NCBI GenBank assembly: GCA_965222805.1 | Contig: CBDCUX010000005.1 | Coordinates: 2,978,777 to 3,042,776 of the forward strand | Direction of reading: 5' to 3' | DNA length: 64,000 nt | Source: Candidatus Poribacteria bacterium | Lineage (GTDB): Bacteria; Poribacteria; WGA-4E; PCPOR2b | Shown here: in pieces, positions 3,415 through 60,556 of the stretch | How positions within the stretch are numbered: position 1 is the first letter of the stretch | Layout of the letters: every line of letters starts with the position of its first letter | Notes under the pieces: generated by a model | Database searches by the model: none | Told to the model about the DNA's origin: nothing | The model's input: only the letters and a program-made list of their open reading frames with translations | Made by a program: the position numbers and the translations under genes

Positions 3415-6261
3415 TTATTTTGGTTCACTCAACCCAGAAGTGTGCTCGTGTATGCGCTGACGCTCGAGATTCGCATATGGGTCAGCGCGACGGGTGATGC
3501 CGGTGATAGCATCAACGGATTCATCTGCCTTAAACCGCAGATACAGTTTCTGTTCCTTCGCAGCCATCACCTCATTTCTGAGTGCACGATAGCACAGCAT
3601 CATGTTGTAGTGAGCATCTAGATCCTCCGGATCGACCGCTAGCGTTTTCTGGAATTCGGTGAGTGCGGCTTCATACTTCCGCTGAAGGTAGAGCAGTCTG
3701 CCCATCTCGTTGCGAACCCGTCGATCTCGCGGGAATTGGAGAGTAGCTGCCCGCAGGTGTTCAAGCGCGTCGTCATATTTTCCGTACGCCTTTTGGACCA
3801 GTGCGTAGAGGTAGTGCACCTTCGCTCGATGCGGATTGTCGGGGGAAAGTTGTTTCTGGAGGGTCATCGCTTTTTCAAGCATCTCCTCAGCCCCGTTCAT
3901 ATCGCCCTCCTGAATGCGACACCGTGCGACGTTGACCCACCCGTCCATATAGGTCGGTTCAATCTCCGTGACCTTCAGGAATACCGCTTCCGCGCCCTTG
4001 AGATCGCCTTGAAGGAATAGCCCGATACCGTAGTCATTCCAACGTTCACGGTGGTTCGATTGCGGGTTCTCACCTGAACCTCCGATTGCCGGTTCATTTG
4101 GTTCACCCCGGTCGACCACCCGCAAGGTTGCTATATCCTCTGCCATGGGAATAATTGGCAGGTTAGGAATTTCCTTAATTTTCCCAGCGACATCCGATGT
4201 ATCTCCCGTGAAGACCCAACGCCCATTGTCATACCCTTTACCAACCTGAAAATCGGCATCCTCCGGATCTCGCACCCCTGCATAAGCCCACTGCGTATGC
4301 CACCAGTTGAATTTGCGGTAATTCAACTTTGCGTGCAGATGAACCTCATCCCCACAATCCGGTGGAATGAAGAGGCGGTAGTGGACGGTATCCGCAGCAC
4401 CGGGGGGAATGGTGTTCGCATAGAGGACAGTCCGCGCCGCCCACGCATTGCGTTTATTAATAAGATTTCCGTGTTCGTCCAACATATACGCCCGATAAAA
4501 GTGTGCCCCCGGATCAACGGGTCCGTTTCCATCTTCCGCTTCAATCCGCCCACTCCAGAAGATTACCTTTCCGTTTTCATCCGTCGCCTTCAATTCCAAC
4601 CAGATATCGAAGGCATCAATTGTACCGGCGGGGAATCGGTGCCCCACTTCCCTTGTACGAACAACTACATCAACCCGAACCTCCTCACCACGCTGAACCG
4701 TTGGGTTGGAACCGTTGATAGGTGCGACAAGCTTTGTTATGTCGGTTACCGTGCCGATAGCGTGCCCCTGATTTCCGCCATCCATCATGCTAAAGGTGCG
4801 GAGTTGAGAGCTGGAGGACGCGCTGACACCGCCTTCTAACCCACCATGGGATTGGATCGGTGTTGCGGGACTTAGCGCGAAAATATCCACGCTCACTTGG
4901 TTATTCTGGAGAAATTCAGTGGTCACCTTGAGTTGTTCGTCGTGCTTGTTCACGAAAGGAAGCGCCGTATTCGCCGCGGGAAAGCGGTGGCTATGAACCT
5001 TGCCGTCGATATTCGCCGCATCTTTCGAGGAAATTAGTGGCATGTGGCAATCGGTGCACTTCTTCGGTTCTTCAGGGTAGTAGAAAGACAACGCCCCCTG
5101 ATGAGAGACCCCGCTGGTCTGCCACTGATCGTAGTCGTCAAAGCCACGGAACCATCGGAAATTGTTGACCGGCACATCGAGGTGCACCTTGTGACAGGTG
5201 GAGCAAAACTCTGCGGTGTTCTGGCGATGGAATGGCTTGAGGAAACTTTTTTTGTGGGGTTCTGGATCTAGGCGGATAAGGTAATTATGGAGTGTGCGAA
5301 TTGCAGGATTTTCGCTAGCGGCCATCTCATGTAGGGGTGGGTACTTGATGACGTATCCGCTGTTTCCCATCGTATCTTTGACCTTTTCCATTGAGTGGCA
5401 CGCCGTACACGCGAGCCCGGCTTGGGCGGCAGGCGTATGCAAATTCTCCCGGATCGGTCGATCCATCACGCCGTTCAGCAAGATAGCAGGGTCGTGACAG
5501 CCACCGCACCATTTGGAGGGTTGAATCCCATTGACATCCTGCATATACATGATCGATTTGCGATACCACTGATTGTTAAAGGAGGCGAAGTGATGCGCCG
5601 ATTCGTGCCACTGTTTGTAGATGTCCGGGTGGCAGCCGCTTTCAGCACAGGTTTGGGAGGTCAAGAAGAAATCGGTGGGAATCAGATCGCCGGTATAGGT
5701 CTCGACGGAAGCGGGGAAGAACGGTCCATCGGTGCCGCCGCCTTCCTCATACATACTAGTCGGCGGAGAGAGTGGATTTTTTACGAGATAGTCGGGGTTG
5801 GGTCGATAGTGTTGGATTAATCTTGCCCCAACGGGAAACAGCAGGCTGATAAGGAGAACGATTCCGGCGATTTGCGCTGCTTTGCGTGAAAACTCCGTCT
5901 CCGCTCGTCTCCCCAAAATCAACAGGTGTCCGACAAATAGGATTGTACCGAGCGTCACTGCCACGATATGGAGGATGAGCAGCCAGCGGTTGGGGGTCGT
6001 GGCACCGACGAACATCAGGTACACGCCTGAAATCGCCCCGACTCCCAGAGAAACCACCCCGCCTTTGCCGATAATTGACATGCCGGCGAAGCGCTTGTAC
6101 AGATAAACAATAAACGGGATAATCAGTGCAGCCCCGAGGACGATGTGGATCAGGACGTTCCCGATATAAAATAGGGTCGGCTCTCCGAAGCTGATTAGAT
6201 ATGCACTGTTAATCAGCAGGATTAGGAAACCGAGCAGTAGGAGTTTTGTCCAGAGTCGCAT
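3415..6261 (-). CDS. Multiheme c-type cytochrome with N-terminal transmembrane segments and C-terminal TPR repeats
   Basis: Four canonical CxxCH motifs (CGGCH, CTACH, CSTCH, CTDCH) plus one CX4CH. Hydrophobic N-terminal 150 aa. C-terminal third has TPR-like helices (AHYNMMLCYRALRNEVMAAKE..). Confidence 0.7.
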   Translation of the reverse strand: MRLWTKLLLLGFLILLINSAYLISFGEPTLFYIGNVLIHIVLGAALIIPFIVYLYKRFAGMSIIGKGGVVSLGVGAISGVYLMFVGATTPNRWLLILHIVAVTLGTILFVGHLLILGRRAETEFSRKAAQIAGIVLLISLLFPVGARLIQHYRPNPDYLVKNPLSPPTSMYEEGGGTDGPFFPASVETYTGDLIPTDFFLTSQTCAESGCHPDIYKQWHESAHHFASFNNQWYRKSIMYMQDVNGIQPSKWCGGCHDPAILLNGVMDRPIRENLHTPAAQAGLACTACHSMEKVKDTMGNSGYVIKYPPLHEMAASENPAIRTLHNYLIRLDPEPHKKSFLKPFHRQNTAEFCSTCHKVHLDVPVNNFRWFRGFDDYDQWQTSGVSHQGALSFYYPEEPKKCTDCHMPLISSKDAANIDGKVHSHRFPAANTALPFVNKHDEQLKVTTEFLQNNQVSVDIFALSPATPIQSHGGLEGGVSASSSSQLRTFSMMDGGNQGHAIGTVTDITKLVAPINGSNPTVQRGEEVRVDVVVRTREVGHRFPAGTIDAFDIWLELKATDENGKVIFWSGRIEAEDGNGPVDPGAHFYRAYMLDEHGNLINKRNAWAARTVLYANTIPPGAADTVHYRLFIPPDCGDEVHLHAKLNYRKFNWWHTQWAYAGVRDPEDADFQVGKGYDNGRWVFTGDTSDVAGKIKEIPNLPIIPMAEDIATLRVVDRGEPNEPAIGGSGENPQSNHRERWNDYGIGLFLQGDLKGAEAVFLKVTEIEPTYMDGWVNVARCRIQEGDMNGAEEMLEKAMTLQKQLSPDNPHRAKVHYLYALVQKAYGKYDDALEHLRAATLQFPRDRRVRNEMGRLLYLQRKYEAALTEFQKTLAVDPEDLDAHYNMMLCYRALRNEVMAAKEQKLYLRFKADESVDAITGITRRADPYANLERQRIHEHTSGLSEPK

Positions 6262-7272: not shown

Positions 7273-7462
7273 CAAGCCGTTGCAGTCTTTTTAATCTCAA
7301 TTTATTGGGGTGACAGCTGACTCTCTTGGGTTTAGCAATGATGATAATCAAGGGTAGGTAACGTAAACTAAAAAGAGTGATAGAGGTCCGTTTATGTAGA
7401 TGGTTTTTCGGTAACGAATCCAAAACAGGCGGGGATGCTCCGACAAGCATCAGACCCGCATA

Positions 7463-7722
7463 CTATGGGAGATTTTAGAATTACTTAGACACTTCCAATG
7501 AACAGCCAACCCCCCTAAATCCCCCTTATCAGGGGGACTTGATAATTAATCCCCCAACTCCCCTGACAAGGGGACTCCCTCTGATAAGGGGGCAGGGGGG
7601 GTTAGGGGAGCTTCTCCCTTGTCTTTCCCCTCTTATCAGAGGGGTTCAGGGGGACTTTGGAAACTTCGTGAAGGTCGGAGTTATTGGTAAATGTCTACTT
7701 ATTTCTCTAGTTCACCATAAAT
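7463..7722. repeat. MITE-like element family A copy 2 (about 260 bp, carries an extra internal hairpin module)
   Basis: Same termini and core as 3127-3354, plus an inserted module CCCCCTTATCAGGGGGACTTGATAATTAAT shared with family B. Its right end abuts the RBS (AAGGAG) and ATG of the PhyH gene at 7741. Confidence 0.8.
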
Positions 7723-7740
7723 TACAAGGAGATAACCACT

Positions 7741-8741: not shown

Positions 8742-8830
8742 TAGAGAGTTATCGGCGAATTATGGACACGCCTCACATAAACGTCAACACGCCCTACATA
8801 CCTTAAATTTTTGTAAGGAGAACAGTAGAA

Positions 8831-10246
8831 ATGGGACCAGGGGACTCGTTTTTTGAACAGATTAATCTCAACTTCGACAGAGCCGCTCAGCTCACCGACT
8901 ACCCGCCCGGTCTACTTGAGCAGATCAAAATCTGCAATAGCGTCTGTCACATGACATTCCCGCTCAGAAGAGATGATGGAGAGATTGAAGTCATCCATGC
9001 GTGGCGAGCGGAACATAGTCATCACAAACAGCCGACAAAAGGTGGAATCCGTTACAGTACGTTGGTCAATGAGGACGAGGTGATCGCGCTCGCCGCCCTG
9101 ATGACATACAAATGCGCGATCGTCGATGTGCCGTTCGGTGGGGCAAAAGGGGGGCTTCAAATCGATATCAAGAAGTACTCCGCCGCGGAATTGGAACGCG
9201 TCACCCGCCGCTATACGTATGAATTGATTCAGAAGAATTTCATTGGTCCCGGGATAGATGTTCCCGCCCCGGACTACGGTACCGGGGAACGTGAAATGGC
9301 ATGGATTGCCCACACCTATAACTCATTCACTCCAGACAAGTTGGACGGCTTGGCATGTGTGACGGGGAAGCCGGTGGATCAAGGCGGCATTCACGGACGT
9401 GCAGCAGCAACGGGTAGAGGCGTGTATTTTGGCATCCGAGAGGTGTGCAGTTTCGCAGAAGATATGAAGGTGCTTGAGTTGACGCCGGGCCTAGAAGGTA
9501 AATCGGTTGTCATTCAAGGATTTGGCAACGTCGGGTACCACAGTGCCAAATTTTTAGAAGAAGGTGGGGCGGTGATTGTTGGATTAGCAGACATGAGCGG
9601 TGCCATCTACAACCCGAAAGGATTAGCTATCAAGGAAGTTTACCAGCATCGACAGGAAAAGGATTCTCTTCTCAATTTTCCCGGGGCGACTAATCTCCCA
9701 AACTTAGCTGATGTCCTCGAACTGGAATGTGACATCCTCATTCCAGCGGCACTTGAAAATCAGATTACCCGCGAGAACGCTTCTCGAATCAATGCCAAGA
9801 TTATCGCGGAAGCCGCAAACGGCCCAACAACCCCCGAAGCAGATGACATCCTCAAGGCGAACGGGGTGTGGGTTATTCCCGATGTGTATCTAAATGCGGG
9901 AGGCGTTACCATCTCTTATTTTGAATGGCTCAAGAATCTTTCGCATGTGCGGTTCGGTCAGCTGCAAAGAGGTTTTGAGGAAAATAGGGACAGAAATCTT
10001 TTGACGGCAATGGAAGGCGTGTCGGGTCAGCAGTTTTCAAATGCAGAACGGGATCGGTTGGCACATGGCGCTACGGAAGAAGATTTGGTGGATGCGTCAC
10101 TTGAGGAAACGATGGTGACTGCATACCATGAAATCAGAAGGGAATCAGAAGCACTTGGAAAAGAGGCGGACTTGAGAACCGCGGCGTTGGTCATCGCTAT
10201 CCATCAGATTGCTCGATCTTATATGCAATCAGGAATCTTTCCGTAG
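8831..10246 (+). CDS. gdhA: Glutamate dehydrogenase (Glu/Leu/Phe/Val dehydrogenase family)
   Basis: 471 aa. Catalytic motif VPFGGAKGG and Rossmann GFGNVG present. Colinear with bacterial GdhA/RocG. Confidence 0.8.
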   Translation: MGPGDSFFEQINLNFDRAAQLTDYPPGLLEQIKICNSVCHMTFPLRRDDGEIEVIHAWRAEHSHHKQPTKGGIRYSTLVNEDEVIALAALMTYKCAIVDVPFGGAKGGLQIDIKKYSAAELERVTRRYTYELIQKNFIGPGIDVPAPDYGTGEREMAWIAHTYNSFTPDKLDGLACVTGKPVDQGGIHGRAAATGRGVYFGIREVCSFAEDMKVLELTPGLEGKSVVIQGFGNVGYHSAKFLEEGGAVIVGLADMSGAIYNPKGLAIKEVYQHRQEKDSLLNFPGATNLPNLADVLELECDILIPAALENQITRENASRINAKIIAEAANGPTTPEADDILKANGVWVIPDVYLNAGGVTISYFEWLKNLSHVRFGQLQRGFEENRDRNLLTAMEGVSGQQFSNAERDRLAHGATEEDLVDASLEETMVTAYHEIRRESEALGKEADLRTAALVIAIHQIARSYMQSGIFP

Positions 10247-11276: not shown

Positions 11277-11285
11277 TTACTAGAG

Positions 11286-11663
11286 ATAACGCAAGTTGCT
11301 AGGCAATCTATAGCTCGCGTTTTGATACCCGACACCTATCAGAAATAATCAAATTTACGACACACCTGTTGCCCCTCTGGGGCTTTTTGGATCGGGCAAA
11401 TTTGAGAAGATCCCGTGCCCGGGGATGCCCGACCTACGGGAGTGGTGCGCTTTGATACACACGTTGCCCCGTTGGGCTTTATGACTTGGGTGAGACACCC
11501 TCTGCTATGCATATTGCGCTCCTCTGGAGCACGGAGACTGGGTATATCTGCATTCTATAGACATATTGCTCCGCTGGAGCGGAAGGTAGGGCACTTGACG
11601 GGCGGTGGGACCTCGCCCCTACAGTCAAATCGATGGATTTTCAATGCCTAGCAGCTTGAATTA
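11286..11663. repeat. Family C tandem hairpin-repeat array, copy 2, preceded by an inverted REP (GTAGGTCGAG..CTCGAC at 11259-11285)
   Basis: Units ..GATACCCGACACCTATCAGAAATAA.., ..TTGCCCCTCTGGGGC.., ..TTGCCCCGTTGGGC.., ..GCGCTCCTCTGGAGC.., ..TATAGACATATTGCTCCGCTGGAGCGG.. The last unit and the trailing ATGGATTTTCAATGC are near-identical to the end of the array at 1077-1295. Confidence 0.6.
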
Positions 11664-11671
11664 CAATAACA

Positions 11672-11842
11672 GGACTTACGCAAATTTAGTATGCGGCACG
11701 AGATTTTTCTGTTTTTAACCCCCTAAATCCCCCTTATCAGGGGGACTTGATAACTAACCCCCTAACCCCCCTGCCCCCTTATCAGGGGGAGTCCCCTTGT
11801 CAGGGGAGTTGCAGGGGACTTATGAACCAACTGCGTAAGTCC
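11672..11842. repeat. MITE-like element family B copy 1 (terminal inverted repeats GGACTTACGCA)
   Basis: Left GGACTTACGCAAATTTAG, right GAACCAACTGCGTAAGTCC (reverse complement GGACTTACGCAGTTGGTTC). The core shares CTAAATCCCC, CCCCCTTATCAGGGGG and CCCCTTGTCAGGGG modules with family A. Second copy at 37866-38006. Confidence 0.75.
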
Positions 11843-11849
11843 TAAATAA

Positions 11850-24647: not shown

Positions 24648-24847
24648 GTGTTGCTTTTGTAACTCCTCGTTGGTTGGATTAAGAGACTATAACCACGATT
24701 ATATCAGTTTCCATTCAGTTGATCTAACAAAAAACTGAGGTCCTTGGGCACAAATTACGCAGGTTGACTTATTTGGGGCGAATGTGCTAAATTAAGGAGG
24801 TCTATTCTAGATTCACGCTATTTAGGATGAGCGGATGTAAATCCCGT

Positions 24848-24975
24848 TTATGGTAGATTTCAGAATTAATTAGACACCGTGGACAAGCGAGGTCAGTAAC
24901 CTTGTACGCAGAGTTACGGCACACGGAGTGTGCCTACTACTTTTAATGTCCATTTATTTTTAGAATTCACCATAG
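24848..24975. repeat. MITE family A variant copy (about 128 bp) with internal REP-like module
   Basis: Termini TTTATGGTAGATTTCAGAATTAATTAGACA ... TTTAGAATTCACCATAG match family A. The interior is replaced by GTTACGGCACACGGAGTGTGCCTAC, related to the 35178-35198 REP. It is followed at 24982-25006 by REP GGAACAACGATCGTTGTTCC-CTAC. Confidence 0.7.
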
Positions 24976-25071
24976 AAGCAAGGAACAACGATCGTTGTTC
25001 CCTACAGCCTCCCATCTTATTGGGGCGAATCCCTTGCTAATTGGTTGTTTTAGAAACAGGAGGAGAGATAT

Positions 25072-33329: not shown

Positions 33330-34988
33330 CTAGTTTGATTTTACGTTCCCCTCTACCAACGTGAGAATTTGATTTGCTTCAATCGCTTCAAGCTGTTCCT
33401 GTAGACCGCTGGGCCAGTGGATTTCAATCCGATTGATTTGGCGGTGTTTCCCTAATCCAAAGTGCAACCGCATGTCATTCTGCGATAGGTAGCTTGAACC
33501 GCTCCGAACTTCCCGTATCTGTGTTAGGTTTCCGGTTGTGACCTTAACCCGTGCCCCAATCGCATCCCGATTGCTGCGCGTACCAATTAGTTTGAGGGTT
33601 AACCATGTATTCTGTCCTCCCCTATTCTCCAATAGGTCTGGCGTACCCTTCAGGTTCGTCACGAGCAGGTCGAGATCGCCGTCATTGTCGTAATCAGCGT
33701 ATGCGAAACCGCGACTAACCTTCTCCAAGCGCAGACCAGAACCTGAGTCGATAGCTATCTCGTCAAAGGTGCCATCTCGATTGTTGCGGAAGAATAGATT
33801 GGACTGTTCATAAAAGCCAGTCGGATTGAATGCCTGAACATTCTCGTCCAGATGTCCGTTGGCAACGAATAGATCCTGATAACCGTCGTTGTCGTAGTCG
33901 CAGAAACCCACCCCCCACGCCAAGTAGGGCAAACTCATTGTCCCAATCTTTGATGCATAGCTCACATCCGAAAATAGCCCATCCCGCTCGTTGTGATAGA
34001 GGGTGTTTGTCTGATCCTGGAAGTTGGTGACGATAAGGTCTAAGTAGCCATCGTTATCGTAATCTCCGAAGTCAGCGCCCATGCCGTTCTCTGCTTCCCC
34101 ATCTTCGCTGAACCCAACGCCTGCGGCCAAACTGACATCGGTAAAAGTGCCATCGCTGTTGTTGCGGTAGAGGAAGTTTTGGTCGGCGTCGTTGGCGATA
34201 TAGACATCCATGTCACCGTCGTCGTCGTAATCCCCCCAAGCGAGGGCGAGTCCGCGCCCTGTTGCCTCAGAAAAACCTGCGGATTCCGTCACATCGGTAA
34301 AGGTTCCGTCGCCGTTATTGTGATAGAGGATATCCAATTCCCCCTCATAGAGGCGCGGGTCACAGTAAACACGCACCCCTTTATCCATGCAGACCTGATC
34401 CGATTCGATTGCATACTTCACATAGTTTGTTATATAGAGGTCTAAAAAGCTGTCGTTGTCGTAATCGACGAAGGCGCAGCTTGCCCCCCAGCGCGTGTCT
34501 CCGGTGCCTGTGTGTGTTGTGACATCGGTCAACGTGCCATCCCCATTGTTACGGAAAAAGGCGTTTGCCCCGAAGTTTGTCACGTATAGATCGGGAAACC
34601 CGTTGTTGTCGTAATCTCCAACTGTGCACCCCATACCGTAGCCTGCATCGGCGACGCCTGCTGCGATTGCGACATCGGTGAACGTACCATCCCCGTTGTT
34701 GCGATAGAGCGCGTTCCGCGGTGGTTCGCTCCCATCTGATTGTCTCTCCGTAAGCGGAGAGAGTTCCGTCCCATTGACGAGGTAGATGTCTTGGAGTCCG
34801 TCGTTGTTGTAATCCAGAAACGCTGCGCCCGCACCGAGAGGTTCGATGAAGTATCGCTGCCCGCGCCCACCGTCGTGGTGTTTGAAGTGGATACCTGCTT
34901 CCTTTGTGACCGATTTAAACTTGATTGGGTCTGTGGAGGCAGCGCTGCTGATGAGAAGCAGTAGGAGAGATATAAAAAAAAGGTTCAT
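33330..34988 (-). CDS. CRTAC1-family protein (FG-GAP repeats + ASPIC/UnbV domain), secreted
   Basis: Signal peptide, repeated DYNNDG..D / GDYDNNGFPDL / DYDNDGYLDL motifs, C-terminal UnbV-like beta domain. Confidence 0.7.
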   Translation of the reverse strand: MNLFFISLLLLLISSAASTDPIKFKSVTKEAGIHFKHHDGGRGQRYFIEPLGAGAAFLDYNNDGLQDIYLVNGTELSPLTERQSDGSEPPRNALYRNNGDGTFTDVAIAAGVADAGYGMGCTVGDYDNNGFPDLYVTNFGANAFFRNNGDGTLTDVTTHTGTGDTRWGASCAFVDYDNDSFLDLYITNYVKYAIESDQVCMDKGVRVYCDPRLYEGELDILYHNNGDGTFTDVTESAGFSEATGRGLALAWGDYDDDGDMDVYIANDADQNFLYRNNSDGTFTDVSLAAGVGFSEDGEAENGMGADFGDYDNDGYLDLIVTNFQDQTNTLYHNERDGLFSDVSYASKIGTMSLPYLAWGVGFCDYDNDGYQDLFVANGHLDENVQAFNPTGFYEQSNLFFRNNRDGTFDEIAIDSGSGLRLEKVSRGFAYADYDNDGDLDLLVTNLKGTPDLLENRGGQNTWLTLKLIGTRSNRDAIGARVKVTTGNLTQIREVRSGSSYLSQNDMRLHFGLGKHRQINRIEIHWPSGLQEQLEAIEANQILTLVEGNVKSN

Positions 34989-35075
34989 GTTAAAAAATGA
35001 AACGAGGAGAGTGTGAAGCGTGATGCATGAAACGTGAAAAGCATTGGTTCATTAGTTCATTGGCACCGCAAGTTC

Positions 35076-35198
35076 GGGCGGGGGAACCCCGCCCCTACGG
35101 TTTCTGTGCGCGGTTTCTTGGCATGAGATACAACAATATGTAGGCATGTCCGTATGCCGCAATTTTCACAAGGGTTACGGCATACGGAGTATGCCTAC
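35076..35198. repeat. REP-like elements: GGGCGGGGGAACCCCGCCC-CTAC plus an inverted REP pair (GTAGGCATGTCCGTATGCCG ... CGGCATACGGAGTATGCCTAC)
   Basis: 8-bp perfect stem at 35076-35100. A roughly 20-bp arm inverted repeat at 35140-35198 with a GTAG head and CTAC tail. Confidence 0.65.
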
Positions 35199-35204
35199 GT
35201 GCGC

Positions 35205-35905
35205 CATGATGTAATGTAATATACAACAGACTTTGATTCTGTCATGGAAACTTACTCCATATGAGTCTTACCCTAACCGCGTTGCTGGAAACAGCAGGGT
35301 AAAAAGCAAGGGAAAATGGCTTAGAAAACAATGAATGTAGACATCGACTATGAGCCCGACTAAACTGGCATGGTGAGTCAACCAACTGATGTCTGAAGCC
35401 TCGTGAACTCCAAACAGGTGAATCTACAAAGGGGACAGGCTTGGAAACCTGTCTGACAAGCCTGTAGCCAAAAGGCATGAGCTGATGATACTACATTGTA
35501 GGTATGTAGTGTTAGTAAGTCAATCGCTTCGGGGTAAAGTCAGCACCTAATCCAGTTATTGTGTATTACATGAGAATCATGGAGTCCCTAAGTCGTCTCA
35601 TTTGAGAAGATAAGGGAGAGGAGGACAGGTAGGTAGCTGAGTCCGATACTCACCTGTGCGATATGTAATGTATTAAACAGTTTACCAAGCATGTCCAGTA
35701 TTGTATACAGCATGGCTTGTATCAGTAAGACAGCAACAGGCGAAAATACCAGAAGGCTGGGTCGCTTTTGTTTTACAACCAGCAAGGCAAACTCTATACA
35801 ATAGGGAAAGCCGTGTGCGGTGAAAGTCGAACGCACGGTTTGGAAGCAGGGAAAATGCCGTGAGGCATCTACCTATGCTTACTACTATAAAGTTATTGTG
35901 ACGCG
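35205..35905. other. Roughly 700-bp ORF-free, lower-GC intergenic segment with several stable hairpins; candidate structured ncRNA or decayed gene
   Basis: No ORF of at least 60 aa on the plus strand; the minus-strand ORFs have implausible sequences. Hairpins include UACCCU..GCUG-GAAA-CAGC..AGGGUA (GNRA tetraloop) at about 35268-35312 and GACAGG-CUUGGAAA-CCUGUC at about 35434-35454. Confidence 0.3.
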
Positions 35906-35907
35906 GG

Positions 35908-36666
35908 TTAATCAATCTTTACATACGTATGCGTCAACGGTTCCCAACCGAGCAGTCGCTTGGCTTTTGATAGATTAATTTCTTCCTGTTCCTCGTCACC
36001 GGCAATGAATACGGCGTCAAAGCCTGTATGCTCGACGGAAAGCCCCGCAAGATAAGCCCGCGCAAGGTCTTCCTCATCGGTTACCCAGATATGGACCTGA
36101 TCGGACCTAGGCTGCCCGCGTTGTTCAATCCACTGCTGGCGGGTCCTAGGACCGGTGATTCGTAGGGCGATGATCGACATACCGTGTTCACGGCAGAAGT
36201 ATCGACAGATCCGCTCCCCAAAACCTTTTGTCAAGCCGTACACACCGGGGTTATCAAGGGGCACCTCTTCCTCAGACGGAAATTTATTGCGTGTCCGTTC
36301 ATGGACGGTGAACGTGCTCGTGTGCACACCGTGGGTGATACCCTCTTCTTTCGCCGCGTGTAACAGGATATGAAGTCCCATTGTGTTGACTTGATAGTTG
36401 GCGATGACATCATCAAAATCTGCTGCTGATGAGGCGTGATCGGTGGGACGACGCATAACCATGTAGATAAATGCGTCCATTCCCTTAAGCGCCTGCTGGA
36501 CAATCTCCGGGTCGGTTACGGAACCTTCGACATATTCGACGGTTGAATCTTTGGGCGGAGAGAGGTCAAGGATGCGAAACTGGTGGTGTGGTTTCATGTA
36601 GGGCAGCGTCATGGTTCCAACATGCCCTGCTCCTCCAACGATTAATACTTTCATAGCGAGTCTCAT
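35908..36666 (-). CDS. NAD(P)-dependent epimerase/oxidoreductase (SDR family)
   Basis: VLIVGGAGHVG glycine-rich Rossmann motif at the N-terminus. 252 aa. Confidence 0.65.
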   Translation of the reverse strand: MRLAMKVLIVGGAGHVGTMTLPYMKPHHQFRILDLSPPKDSTVEYVEGSVTDPEIVQQALKGMDAFIYMVMRRPTDHASSAADFDDVIANYQVNTMGLHILLHAAKEEGITHGVHTSTFTVHERTRNKFPSEEEVPLDNPGVYGLTKGFGERICRYFCREHGMSIIALRITGPRTRQQWIEQRGQPRSDQVHIWVTDEEDLARAYLAGLSVEHTGFDAVFIAGDEEQEEINLSKAKRLLGWEPLTHTYVKID

Positions 36667-55827: not shown

Positions 55828-56119
55828 TACTTTGCTGCCTCCTATAGACAAAAAAAACGCCCACCATCGAACCTATTTCCGATGATGGGCATGAATGAAC
55901 AACCGAATGAGGGAAAATCTCTACATCTTCGATGTGAGGTCTACCCGCCCACCATCACAGCACAAATACAACAAAAAGAGATAGAGATAAAGGAAGTACA
56001 GCGGTGTTTGATGTGCGATGTGGGTGTGTGGTGGGTAGAAGCTTTTCATAATCCTCTTATTATGTTCCTATCTTGACATACTGTAAGCCTAAATAAGGGC
56101 ATTTCGTGTAATTTTAACA

Positions 56120-56160
56120 AATCCGTTGACAAGATGTCAAGGCAATTTTCGTTGACAACC
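56120..56160. promoter_or_regulatory. Palindromic operator-like site TTGACAAGATGTCAA flanked by additional TTGACA boxes
   Basis: CGTTGACAAGATGTCAAGG then CGTTGACAACC, about 120 bp upstream of the 56273 gene. A similar TTGACAGGGTCAA lies upstream of the 47031 gene. Confidence 0.3.
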
Positions 56161-56272
56161 TTTTTTCTGGGTGTTATAGTTATATTTTGGAACGTCGATG
56201 AAACAGATTTAATCGGGATTCGAGGATTAAAGAATCAGGAGAATCCGACAATCCTGATAAAGGAGCAGTCGC

Positions 56273-59949: not shown

Positions 59950-60471
59950 CTACGAGGTATAATTTCCCATATCCGGCTCGATGGCTAGTCCTTGCTCCAG
60001 ATCGAAATCGACTTCGACCGAATGGGCGTGATAGTCCTGATCGCCACGAACCGTTTGATAGACATCGCCCCCCTCCACGCAGATAGGCATGGTATGCCAG
60101 ACCTTGAGACCCAAACATACCCCCACGCTTCCGTCCGAATAGAAGGCGCGTACATCTTCAGCCTCTAGGGTGTCCTTGATAGGACCTACCAGAAACACTG
60201 TTGGTTGGTGCAGGCTTGGATAGAACGCCTGACCCGCGTCGGTATGAAAGGCGAAGTGCGCCCGTTGTAGCCCTTCAGAAAGCGGCGTTTTTTCGGGTTC
60301 GGAGCCTGCTGGCGCCTCAGAAAGATCTGCGGTCACGGGATACGCAGCTGAACGGAGTCCCCCTTTTGCTATCTCTGGTTCGGCTTCCTCAAACGATTCA
60401 ATGACTTCCCCGAATGGCGCGAAGGCTTCGGGGGTCAGCGGCTCAACTTCGACTTTGAAGCTTTTCCACAT
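59950..60471 (-). CDS. Ureidoglycolate lyase (AllA)-like cupin protein
   Basis: LTPEAFAPFGEVIE .. RAFYSDGSVGVCLGLKVWHTMP resembles AllA-family blocks (LS.EAF..YG.VIE, RAF...G..V.YH...WHH). Start ATG 60471 with GAGGAGGG RBS. Confidence 0.55.
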   Translation of the reverse strand: MWKSFKVEVEPLTPEAFAPFGEVIESFEEAEPEIAKGGLRSAAYPVTADLSEAPAGSEPEKTPLSEGLQRAHFAFHTDAGQAFYPSLHQPTVFLVGPIKDTLEAEDVRAFYSDGSVGVCLGLKVWHTMPICVEGGDVYQTVRGDQDYHAHSVEVDFDLEQGLAIEPDMGNYTS

Positions 60472-60523
60472 GGTTCTAACCCTCCTCAAATCATTAGCTG
60501 TTGATTATTGAAAATGGTAGGTA

Positions 60524-60548
60524 AGGAACAACGATCGTTGTTCCCTAC
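60524..60548. repeat. REP-like palindrome GGAACAACGATCGTTGTTCC-CTAC
   Basis: Perfect 20-bp palindrome identical to 24982-25001. Confidence 0.65.
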
Positions 60549-60556
60549 TGCCCTTG

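Follow-up and report, generated by a model that had tools for sequence, protein, structure and literature searches.

What kind of element fills the longest intergenic spacer of a 64-kb stretch of DNA (hereafter the window) from a Poribacteria-like genome is the question addressed here. On a greedy ORF map, the non-coding gap at 34989-35907 spans 919 bp, compared with a median spacer of 97 bp in the window, and it is bounded by two genes of the same orientation:

33330-34988, minus strand: FG-GAP/UnbV gene, one flank of the spacer
35908-36666, minus strand: NAD-dependent epimerase-like gene, the other flank, co-oriented with the FG-GAP/UnbV gene

An initial annotation had described this spacer as long, free of open reading frames, lower in GC and devoid of REP-like hairpins past position 35200, and had interpreted it as either a structured RNA (a large ncRNA or riboregulator) or the relic of a deleted gene. 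The descriptive part of that annotation is borne out. No ORF inside the spacer exceeds 82 aa or matches a Pfam family, the GC content across 35200-35900 is 0.425-0.445 relative to 0.51-0.575 in the flanking genes, and the last REP-like hairpin stops at 35198. Of the two gene arrangements that had been offered, convergent or co-oriented on the minus strand, the second is found. A 687-nt stretch of the spacer also folds more stably than shuffled controls (z = -4.6).

Several other properties of the window were recorded. The encoded LeuA protein shares 92-93% identity with sequences from sponges and 83% with Ca. Poribacteria, which identifies the host as a Poribacteria-like sponge symbiont. No tRNA genes were found within the 64 kb. 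The remaining long spacers (11277-11849, 7273-7740, 60119-60556, 24648-25071 and 55852-56272) measure 421-573 bp, and none of these five has an Rfam match at gathering thresholds. A GC-rich REP-like palindrome, TTCGGGCGGGGGAACCCCGCCCCTAC, is located at 35073-35098; it has no second copy in the window at up to three mismatches.

Identification of a group II intron

The element at 35199-35882 (plus strand) is very probably an ORF-less, non-autonomous group II intron from a lineage of the IIB, chloroplast-like type, for which an RT/maturase would be provided in trans. This form of retroelement is already known, though uncommon in bacteria, and what is new here is a copy in a Poribacteria-like genome. 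The cmscan search against Rfam that the initial annotation had recommended identifies the element directly. When the whole window is searched, the sole match above its gathering score is to RF00029 (domains V and VI), which aligns over the full model to 35806-35882 (plus strand) with 55.3 bits against a cut-off of 40. The GC content of the intron is 0.444, relative to 0.513 for the whole window.

Group II introns comprise six domains, including a large domain I that is shut by a long-range helix and that carries the EBS1-IBS1 and alpha-alpha' pairings. Domain V is a helix of about 34 nt with an AGC catalytic triad, a 2-nt bulge and a GNRA loop. The intron begins with GUGYG, ends with AY and has a bulged branch-point A located 7-8 nt before the 3' splice site. 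The window intron displays the general hallmarks of the class, namely domain V, domain VI with its branch-point A, the characteristic ends, six domains, EBS1-IBS1 pairing and precise insertion. Its features are as follows:

35199-35882, plus strand: ORF-less group II intron with all six domains, 684 nt, delimited by empty sites, the Rfam end at 35882 and nhmmer
35199-35203, plus strand: 5' end GUGCG, directly after the inverted repeat at 35140-35198
35204-35582, plus strand: domain I, 379 nt, from the RNAalifold consensus, pair counts and a single-sequence fold
35204-35210 with 35576-35582, plus strand: closing helix of domain I, from the consensus fold
35251-35256, plus strand: alpha, CUUACU, partner of alpha'
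35269-35301, plus strand: GAAA-capped helix of Ic type in domain I
35434-35453, plus strand: copy-specific hairpin in domain I
35490-35510, plus strand: EBS1 hairpin (Id3 type), with EBS1 GUAGGU at 35498-35503
35514-35519, plus strand: alpha', AGUAAG, just 3' of the EBS1 hairpin
35585-35617, plus strand: domain II hairpin with a CCUAAG...UAAGG receptor-like motif, from helices 16-17, the fold and the alignment
35623-35695, plus strand: domain III region, with a helix at 35623-35659 and a second hairpin at 35660-35695, from the fold
35699-35803, plus strand: domain IV, a 105-nt stem-loop without a reading frame, from inverted repeat I1 and the fold
35808-35841, plus strand: domain V, 34 nt, from RF00029
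35809-35811, plus strand: AGC triad of domain V
35822-35825, plus strand: GAAA tetraloop of domain V
35832-35833, plus strand: two-base bulge of domain V, C35832-G35833
35817 and 35830, plus strand: G35817.A35830 mismatch in domain V
35845-35879, plus strand: domain VI, from the Rfam alignment
35875, plus strand: bulged branch-point A, 7 nt from the 3' splice site (C35882)
35880-35882, plus strand: 3' end ...UAC, where the Rfam match stops at 35882

The domain III region is preceded by a conserved J2/3 sequence, GAGGAG. The register of the domain III helix is peculiar to this copy, with weak comparative support, and domains III and IV are too diverged to be aligned with those of the relatives described below. 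The model for domain I elements RF02012 (group-II-D1D4-7) gives a partial match of 15.2 bits at 35264-35312, which does not reach its gathering cut-off of 34; at the homologous place, two relatives score 34.0 bits (L050) and 32 bits (L012). No further copies of the intron are present within the 64-kb window.

Relatives and lineage assignment

A strict domain V pattern with AA fixed, applied to genome contigs, retrieved only an unrelated Acidithiobacillus intron fragment (L001; loci are designated by L numbers). This pattern was too narrow because its AA includes a mismatch that is private to the window intron. A blastn search of the intron against plasmids gave only generic matches to the domain V region. 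Domain V pattern scans led to an ORF-less intron in an IMG/VR contig (L012, 4403-5318, 916 nt) and to 21 metagenomic loci. By nhmmer, the window intron has homology over domains I-III to L040 (E 1e-19) and L038 (E 6e-15), and also to the IEP-containing introns L041, L042 and L044.

The L040 intron carries in its domain IV a 589-aa ORF with RT, maturase and HNH domains that matches TIGR04416 at 353 bits, and homologues of this protein lead to the full-length introns L041, L042/L043, L044 and L050/L051. The IEPs of the relatives are TIGR04416 group II RT/maturases. The closest relative found, L050, resides in a Candidatus Poribacteria MAG (GCA_009840785.1, VXNB01000200.1); it is 2372 nt long and encodes a 587-aa RT-maturase-HNH protein. 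Its domain I matches that of the window intron at E 2e-21 with ~60-65% identity, and its domains V and VI are identical at 75 of 77 positions. Alpha, EBS1 and alpha' occupy the same positions in both introns, whereas the EBS1 sequence (GCAAAC in L050) and the target differ, and L050 has an extra hairpin before EBS1. The initial annotation had named absence of conservation outside this genome as an outcome that would speak against a structured RNA; homologues are present both in metagenomes and in this MAG.

The IEPs of L040 and L050 align end-to-end with the TeI4h RT (PDB 6ME0_C) at E 1e-82 and 6e-99, respectively, and are far weaker matches to LtrA (IIA) and to IIC RTs (E 1e-34 to 1e-49). Because of this difference, the lineage is probably IIB, chloroplast-like in type. 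This assignment is made through the IEPs of the relatives, as the window intron has none, and is set at a level above CL1, CL2 and class B.

Several neighbouring features were observed among these loci. L022 (922-4858) contains a related intron of ~3.9 kb with a 580-aa IEP and additional intron ORFs of 139 aa (1335-1754) and 138 aa (3948-4364). The L012 contig has at 8771-8954 a sub-threshold match (44 bits, cut-off 83) to HEARO RNA (RF02033, the IscB-associated omega-RNA). A tRNA-Sec gene (RF01852, 76 bits) is located at 4362-4451 of L041, ~830 bp downstream of the intron.

Covariation and exon contacts

The initial annotation had also proposed a homology search followed by covariation analysis. 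Domains I-III of the window intron, L040, L038, L041, L042 and L044 (n = 6) were aligned with MAFFT to give alignment A2. The RNAalifold consensus on A2 contains 103 pairs, and 48 of these show compensatory changes. Standard pairs are formed in 95.1% of the cells, compared with 34-40% after a shift of the 3' partners by 1-3 columns, and the covariation score is 0.438 compared with 0.06-0.09 in these shifted controls. None of 500 shuffles reaches the observed number of paired cells, compensatory pairs or compensatory cells, or the observed covariation score, and a single shuffle (1/500) reaches the observed count of further pair types. As the same alignment had served to predict the structure, the test is in part circular, although the margin is still very large. 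The evidence from EBS1-IBS1 and alpha-alpha' is independent of this structure prediction.

Three hairpins had been singled out in the initial annotation, and they fare differently. The first, UACCCU..GCUG-GAAA-CAGC..AGGGUA at 35269-35301, corresponds to a helix of domain I that is conserved and shows covariation. The second, GACAGG-CUUGGAAA-CCUGUC, is present at 35434-35453 as an insertion specific to this copy that occurs in no relative. The third, GCC-UGUAGCCAAAA-GGC, can be located at 35460-35476 but probably does not form natively, since in the consensus its CCUGU is engaged in helix 13 with an ACAGG located upstream. Covariation is neutral on helix 13, since ACAGG and CCUGU are invariant among the six A2 sequences.

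Alpha lies in the Ib loop at intron nt 50-54 in every sequence and is complementary to alpha' in eight of eight introns, which represent seven different sequence pairs (CUUACU/AGUAAG in the window intron). In the window intron, EBS1 GUAGGU (35498-35503) pairs over six bases with IBS1 GCCUAC (35193-35198). Six-base matches between the homologous loop and the intron's own 5' exon, each with a different sequence, also occur in four relatives:

L050: EBS1 GCAAAC, IBS1 GUUUGC
L042: EBS1 AAUCUC, IBS1 GGGAUU
L044: EBS1 CGUACA, IBS1 UGUACG
L012: EBS1 UCGUUA, IBS1 UAACGA

The EBS1 loops of L038 and L041 fail to match their own exons. Inspection of the window intron and its relatives for an EBS2-IBS2 interaction did not reveal a convincing pairing. 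The candidate UACUCC/GGAGUA was rejected because UACUCC is the alpha element, which pairs with alpha'.

Insertion site and empty sites

The intron directly follows a REP-like inverted repeat, and a second, unoccupied copy of its target is present ~10 kb away:

35140-35198, plus strand: REP-like long inverted repeat with arms at 35140-35160 and 35178-35198, the 3' arm of which is the 5' exon (DNA target)
35193-35198, plus strand: IBS1 GCCTAC, the last six exon bases
24909-24945, plus strand: unoccupied paralogous target ...CGGCACACGGAGTGTGCCTAC/TACTTTT, with the sequence at 24917-24944 and the junction at 24937/24938

Here and below, a slash within a sequence marks the insertion junction. The occupied site reads CGGCATACGGAGTATGCCTAC-intron-TACTATAAAG, and the predicted ligated exons are ...GGAGUAUGCCUAC joined to UACUAUAAAG, giving the junction GCCUAC/UACUAU.

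Syntenic loci in close relatives were reached through homologues of the epimerase-like protein. This protein is 95% identical in L046, where the gene is 87% identical in DNA, and 93% identical in L047, a 5.9-Mb genome. The gene order ADH, 122-aa ORF, PhyH, epimerase and FG-GAP/UnbV is common to L046, L047 and the window, and the orthologous spacers of 204 bp (L046) and 266 bp (L047) are without intron signal. The palindrome TTCGGGCGGGGGAACCCCGCCCCTAC, located just upstream of the target hairpin in the window, is kept in the L046 spacer. The site in L046 is uninterrupted and reads ...GGAGTATGCCTAC/TACTATA... (with a fuller left flank of ...CGGCATACGGAGTATGCCTAC, ...GGGTTACGGCATACGGAGTATGCCTAC), and over 27 + 7 nt it is identical to the window sequence with its exons joined. 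Thus, the intron is a precise 684-bp insertion with no target-site duplication. The comparison indicates that it was acquired after the lineage of the window and the L046 and L047 relatives split.

In a local alignment, the paralogous target is identical to the intron-excised locus at 32 of 37 positions across the junction. The right arm of the target is repeated at 24917-24937, the paralogous site reads GGAGTGTGCCTAC/TACT, and GCCTAC is intact there yet unoccupied. This site is found in a spacer between a minus-strand and a plus-strand gene, and its right arm forms the hairpin GGCACAC-GGA-GTGTGCC. Because a second copy with a hairpin exists at 24909-24945, the intron target belongs to a short dispersed repeat. 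At the empty site of L046 the right arm of the target is kept, and the left arm of the target hairpin is not. A clean natural example of insertion is provided by this set of one occupied site, one empty orthologue and one empty paralogue.

As the intron abuts a hairpin, targeting of terminator hairpins in the manner of class IIC introns was considered. This assignment was rejected in view of the large, IIB-like domain I, the En+ IEPs of the relatives and the lack of conservation of the left arm in L046.

ORF loss and condition of the intron

Searches by tblastn detected no IEP similarity in the intron, for which three related IEPs served as queries, or elsewhere in the 64-kb window, and the intron is therefore ORF-less and non-autonomous. 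Neither a deletion junction nor an ORF relic was found in its domains III and IV. ORF loss recurs in the lineage. L012 keeps IEP relics corresponding to aa 2-59 and aa 540-559 fused in domain IV, L037 keeps an N-terminal IEP relic, and L038 (939 nt), L032 and L029 are further ORF-less relatives. L038 and the IEP-containing L042 come from the same metagenome (Ga0209515).

Compared with its family, the window copy has several lesions. A35830 faces G35817 in the upper helix of domain V, which results in a G.A mismatch. Among 29 related domain V sequences, the position of A35830 is C in 26, the pair is CC in two, and only the window intron has A. The search pattern had left this position free, so the unique A is not an ascertainment effect. 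The receptor-like motif of domain II is UAAGG in this copy compared with UAUGG in the relatives, and one domain II pair is broken. In the consensus structure 12 of 99 cells are unpaired, relative to 1-3 in the IEP-containing relatives; this excess stems partly from alignment register (the EBS1 hairpin and domain III) and partly, perhaps, from real decay.

A scan for promoters and terminators yielded nothing that exceeds shuffled expectation, with a promoter-like count of 4 compared with 1.7 +/- 1.2, and no promoter-like site was found on the plus strand upstream of the intron. Two sigma-70-like matches (10/12 each) lie on the minus strand inside the intron, at 35523-35495 and 35245-35218, and insertion could have changed the upstream region of the FG-GAP gene. 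Judged from its sequence, the copy is probably weakly active or decaying, because it is antisense to its neighbours, has no convincing promoter, carries the domain V mismatch and the altered domain II motif, and has left the paralogous target unoccupied.

Some of the relatives are interrupted by other sequences. A ~25-nt palindromic MITE-like unit (TTGTCTTTTAGAAACCTAAGACAAC and variants) is located inside domain V of L042, near 2460-2490, and the same unit has three insertions in the ORF-less L038 and one in L037 near 440-465. A second small mobile element, absent from the window, is breaking up these intron copies. L037 1-572 is composite, consisting of a domain V (with an insertion in its loop) and domain VI that end at ~nt 101, followed by domains II-VI of another ORF-less copy. 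This second copy bears the N-terminal IEP relic, and the arrangement is a nested or tandem intron fragment.

Proposed mechanism and alternative explanations

Precise, duplication-free insertion at a site that matches IBS1 is what reverse splicing into DNA and subsequent reverse transcription characteristically leave behind. In the proposed mechanism, a full-length relative located elsewhere in the genome would have provided the RT/maturase in trans; full-length relatives with RT-X-HNH proteins exist in Poribacteria. Intron RNA bound by this protein would have reverse-spliced into the top strand at GCCTAC/T and then been copied into DNA. A plus-strand transcript of the resulting locus would fold, branch at A35875 and splice out as a lariat. 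These steps follow the general biology of group II introns (review PMC4424553) and the precedent from Thermosynechococcus elongatus (PMC2882425).

It is possible, though rather doubtful, that the intron instead arrived full-length and lost an ORF of ~1.7 kb by deletion in place, never having been mobile as an ORF-less RNA. ORF loss is a recurrent event in this lineage, as seen from the relics in L012 and L037 and from the ORF-less L038, L032 and L029, and the insertion is not very recent, given a DNA identity of 87% between the adjacent gene and its counterpart in the empty-site relative. Against deletion in place, domain IV is a tidy 105-nt stem-loop in which an IEP relic is undetected, and ORF-less copies in T. 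elongatus do move (PMC2882425). The 6-bp EBS1-IBS1 match fits either course of events. The intron's own reverse-transcriptase ORF may be the sole gene ever lost at this locus.

A broader proposal is that the compact RNAs of this ORF-shedding lineage persist as functional, protein-light elements, either as trans-mobilized 'MITE-like' introns or even as protein-free, DNA-targeting ribozymes of the IIB type. The recurrently ORF-less members that prompt this proposal are the window intron (684 nt), L038 (939 nt), L012 (916 nt), L037 and L029. The proposal is improbable. If it were true, 'MITE-like' introns would be spreading on repeat-borne targets in Poribacteria, and IIB-type DNA-targeting ribozymes would have a longer guide than the class IIC HYERs.

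For the window intron itself, a protein-independent, HYER-like hydrolytic ribozyme that is kept for RNA-only cutting or invasion of guide-matched DNA is very unlikely. The intron is ORF-less and compact, its catalytic triad, tetraloop and branch site are intact, ORF-less derivatives recur in its lineage, and protein-free DNA hydrolysis and reverse splicing have been reported for a IIB1 intron as well as for class IIC HYERs (PMC11754743). However, HYERs belong to class IIC (PMC11754743), and the window intron has a large IIB-type domain I, alpha-alpha' pairing, a 6-bp EBS1 and relatives whose IEPs contain an En domain. A single copy in 64 kb, the domain V mismatch and the unoccupied paralogous target are further points against such a ribozyme, and the MITE insertions that riddle other ORF-less relatives resemble decay rather than selection.

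The structured RNA envisaged by the initial annotation is thus real, but as a mobile retroelement, a group II intron ribozyme, and not as a riboregulator or a new large ncRNA. Domestication by the host, as a structured ncRNA or as a cis-regulator of the flanking genes, is highly improbable. The stable fold between two co-oriented genes and the two minus-strand promoter-like sites are compatible with it. Yet the intron is missing from the same spacer in the closest relatives and so is not a conserved part of the locus. The strand that is conserved runs antisense to the flanking genes, promoter-like sites are no more numerous than expected from shuffles, and every conserved feature is a feature of mobile introns. 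The other suggestion of the initial annotation, the relic of a deleted gene, here taken as a host protein gene that was deleted or frameshifted, accounts for the length and lower GC of the spacer and can be dismissed almost entirely, as the internal ORFs lack Pfam matches, the short orthologous spacers (204-266 bp) are without this DNA and an RNA whose helices covary accounts for the sequence base by base.

Comparison with known systems

The spacer, although anomalous in its window, holds a member of an ordinary class of mobile elements and can be taken off the list of candidate new ncRNAs. Among bacterial ORF-less introns, C.te.I1 of Clostridium tetani is an independent example that resides in a gene and makes mRNAs by alternative splicing (review PMC4424553). 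It shares with the window intron the absence of a nearby IEP. In contrast to C.te.I1, the window intron is intergenic and antisense to its neighbours, so its splicing would have no obvious host role.

HYERs (Liu et al. 2024, as described in PMC11754743) are ORF-less introns of class IIC that recognize very short target sequences. Both HYERs and the window intron are compact ORF-less group II intron RNAs from bacteria. They differ in class, as HYERs have the small domain I of IIC introns, whereas the window intron has a 379-nt domain I, a 6-bp EBS1, alpha-alpha' pairing and relatives with En+ chloroplast-like IEPs.

The window intron is most like the TeI3 ORF-less introns of T. elongatus, which belong to the IIB, chloroplast-like lineage and are mobilized by the IEPs of related introns (Mohr et al. 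2010, PMC2882425). In each case a bacterial intron without an ORF derives from a lineage whose full-length members encode an RT-X-D-En protein, and the IEPs of the window intron's relatives align end-to-end with the TeI4h RT. A single deletion with clear remnants of the ORF termini is common to the TeI3 copies, whereas domain IV of the window intron has no such remnant. The window intron also differs in its domain V mismatch, in that an EBS2 pairing was not found and in that its mobilization in trans is inferred. Moreover, it is present as a single copy in the 64-kb window, and its host, a Poribacteria-like sponge symbiont, belongs to a different phylum. The relatives that have independently become ORF-less form a small family in which compact IIB ribozymes could be sought.
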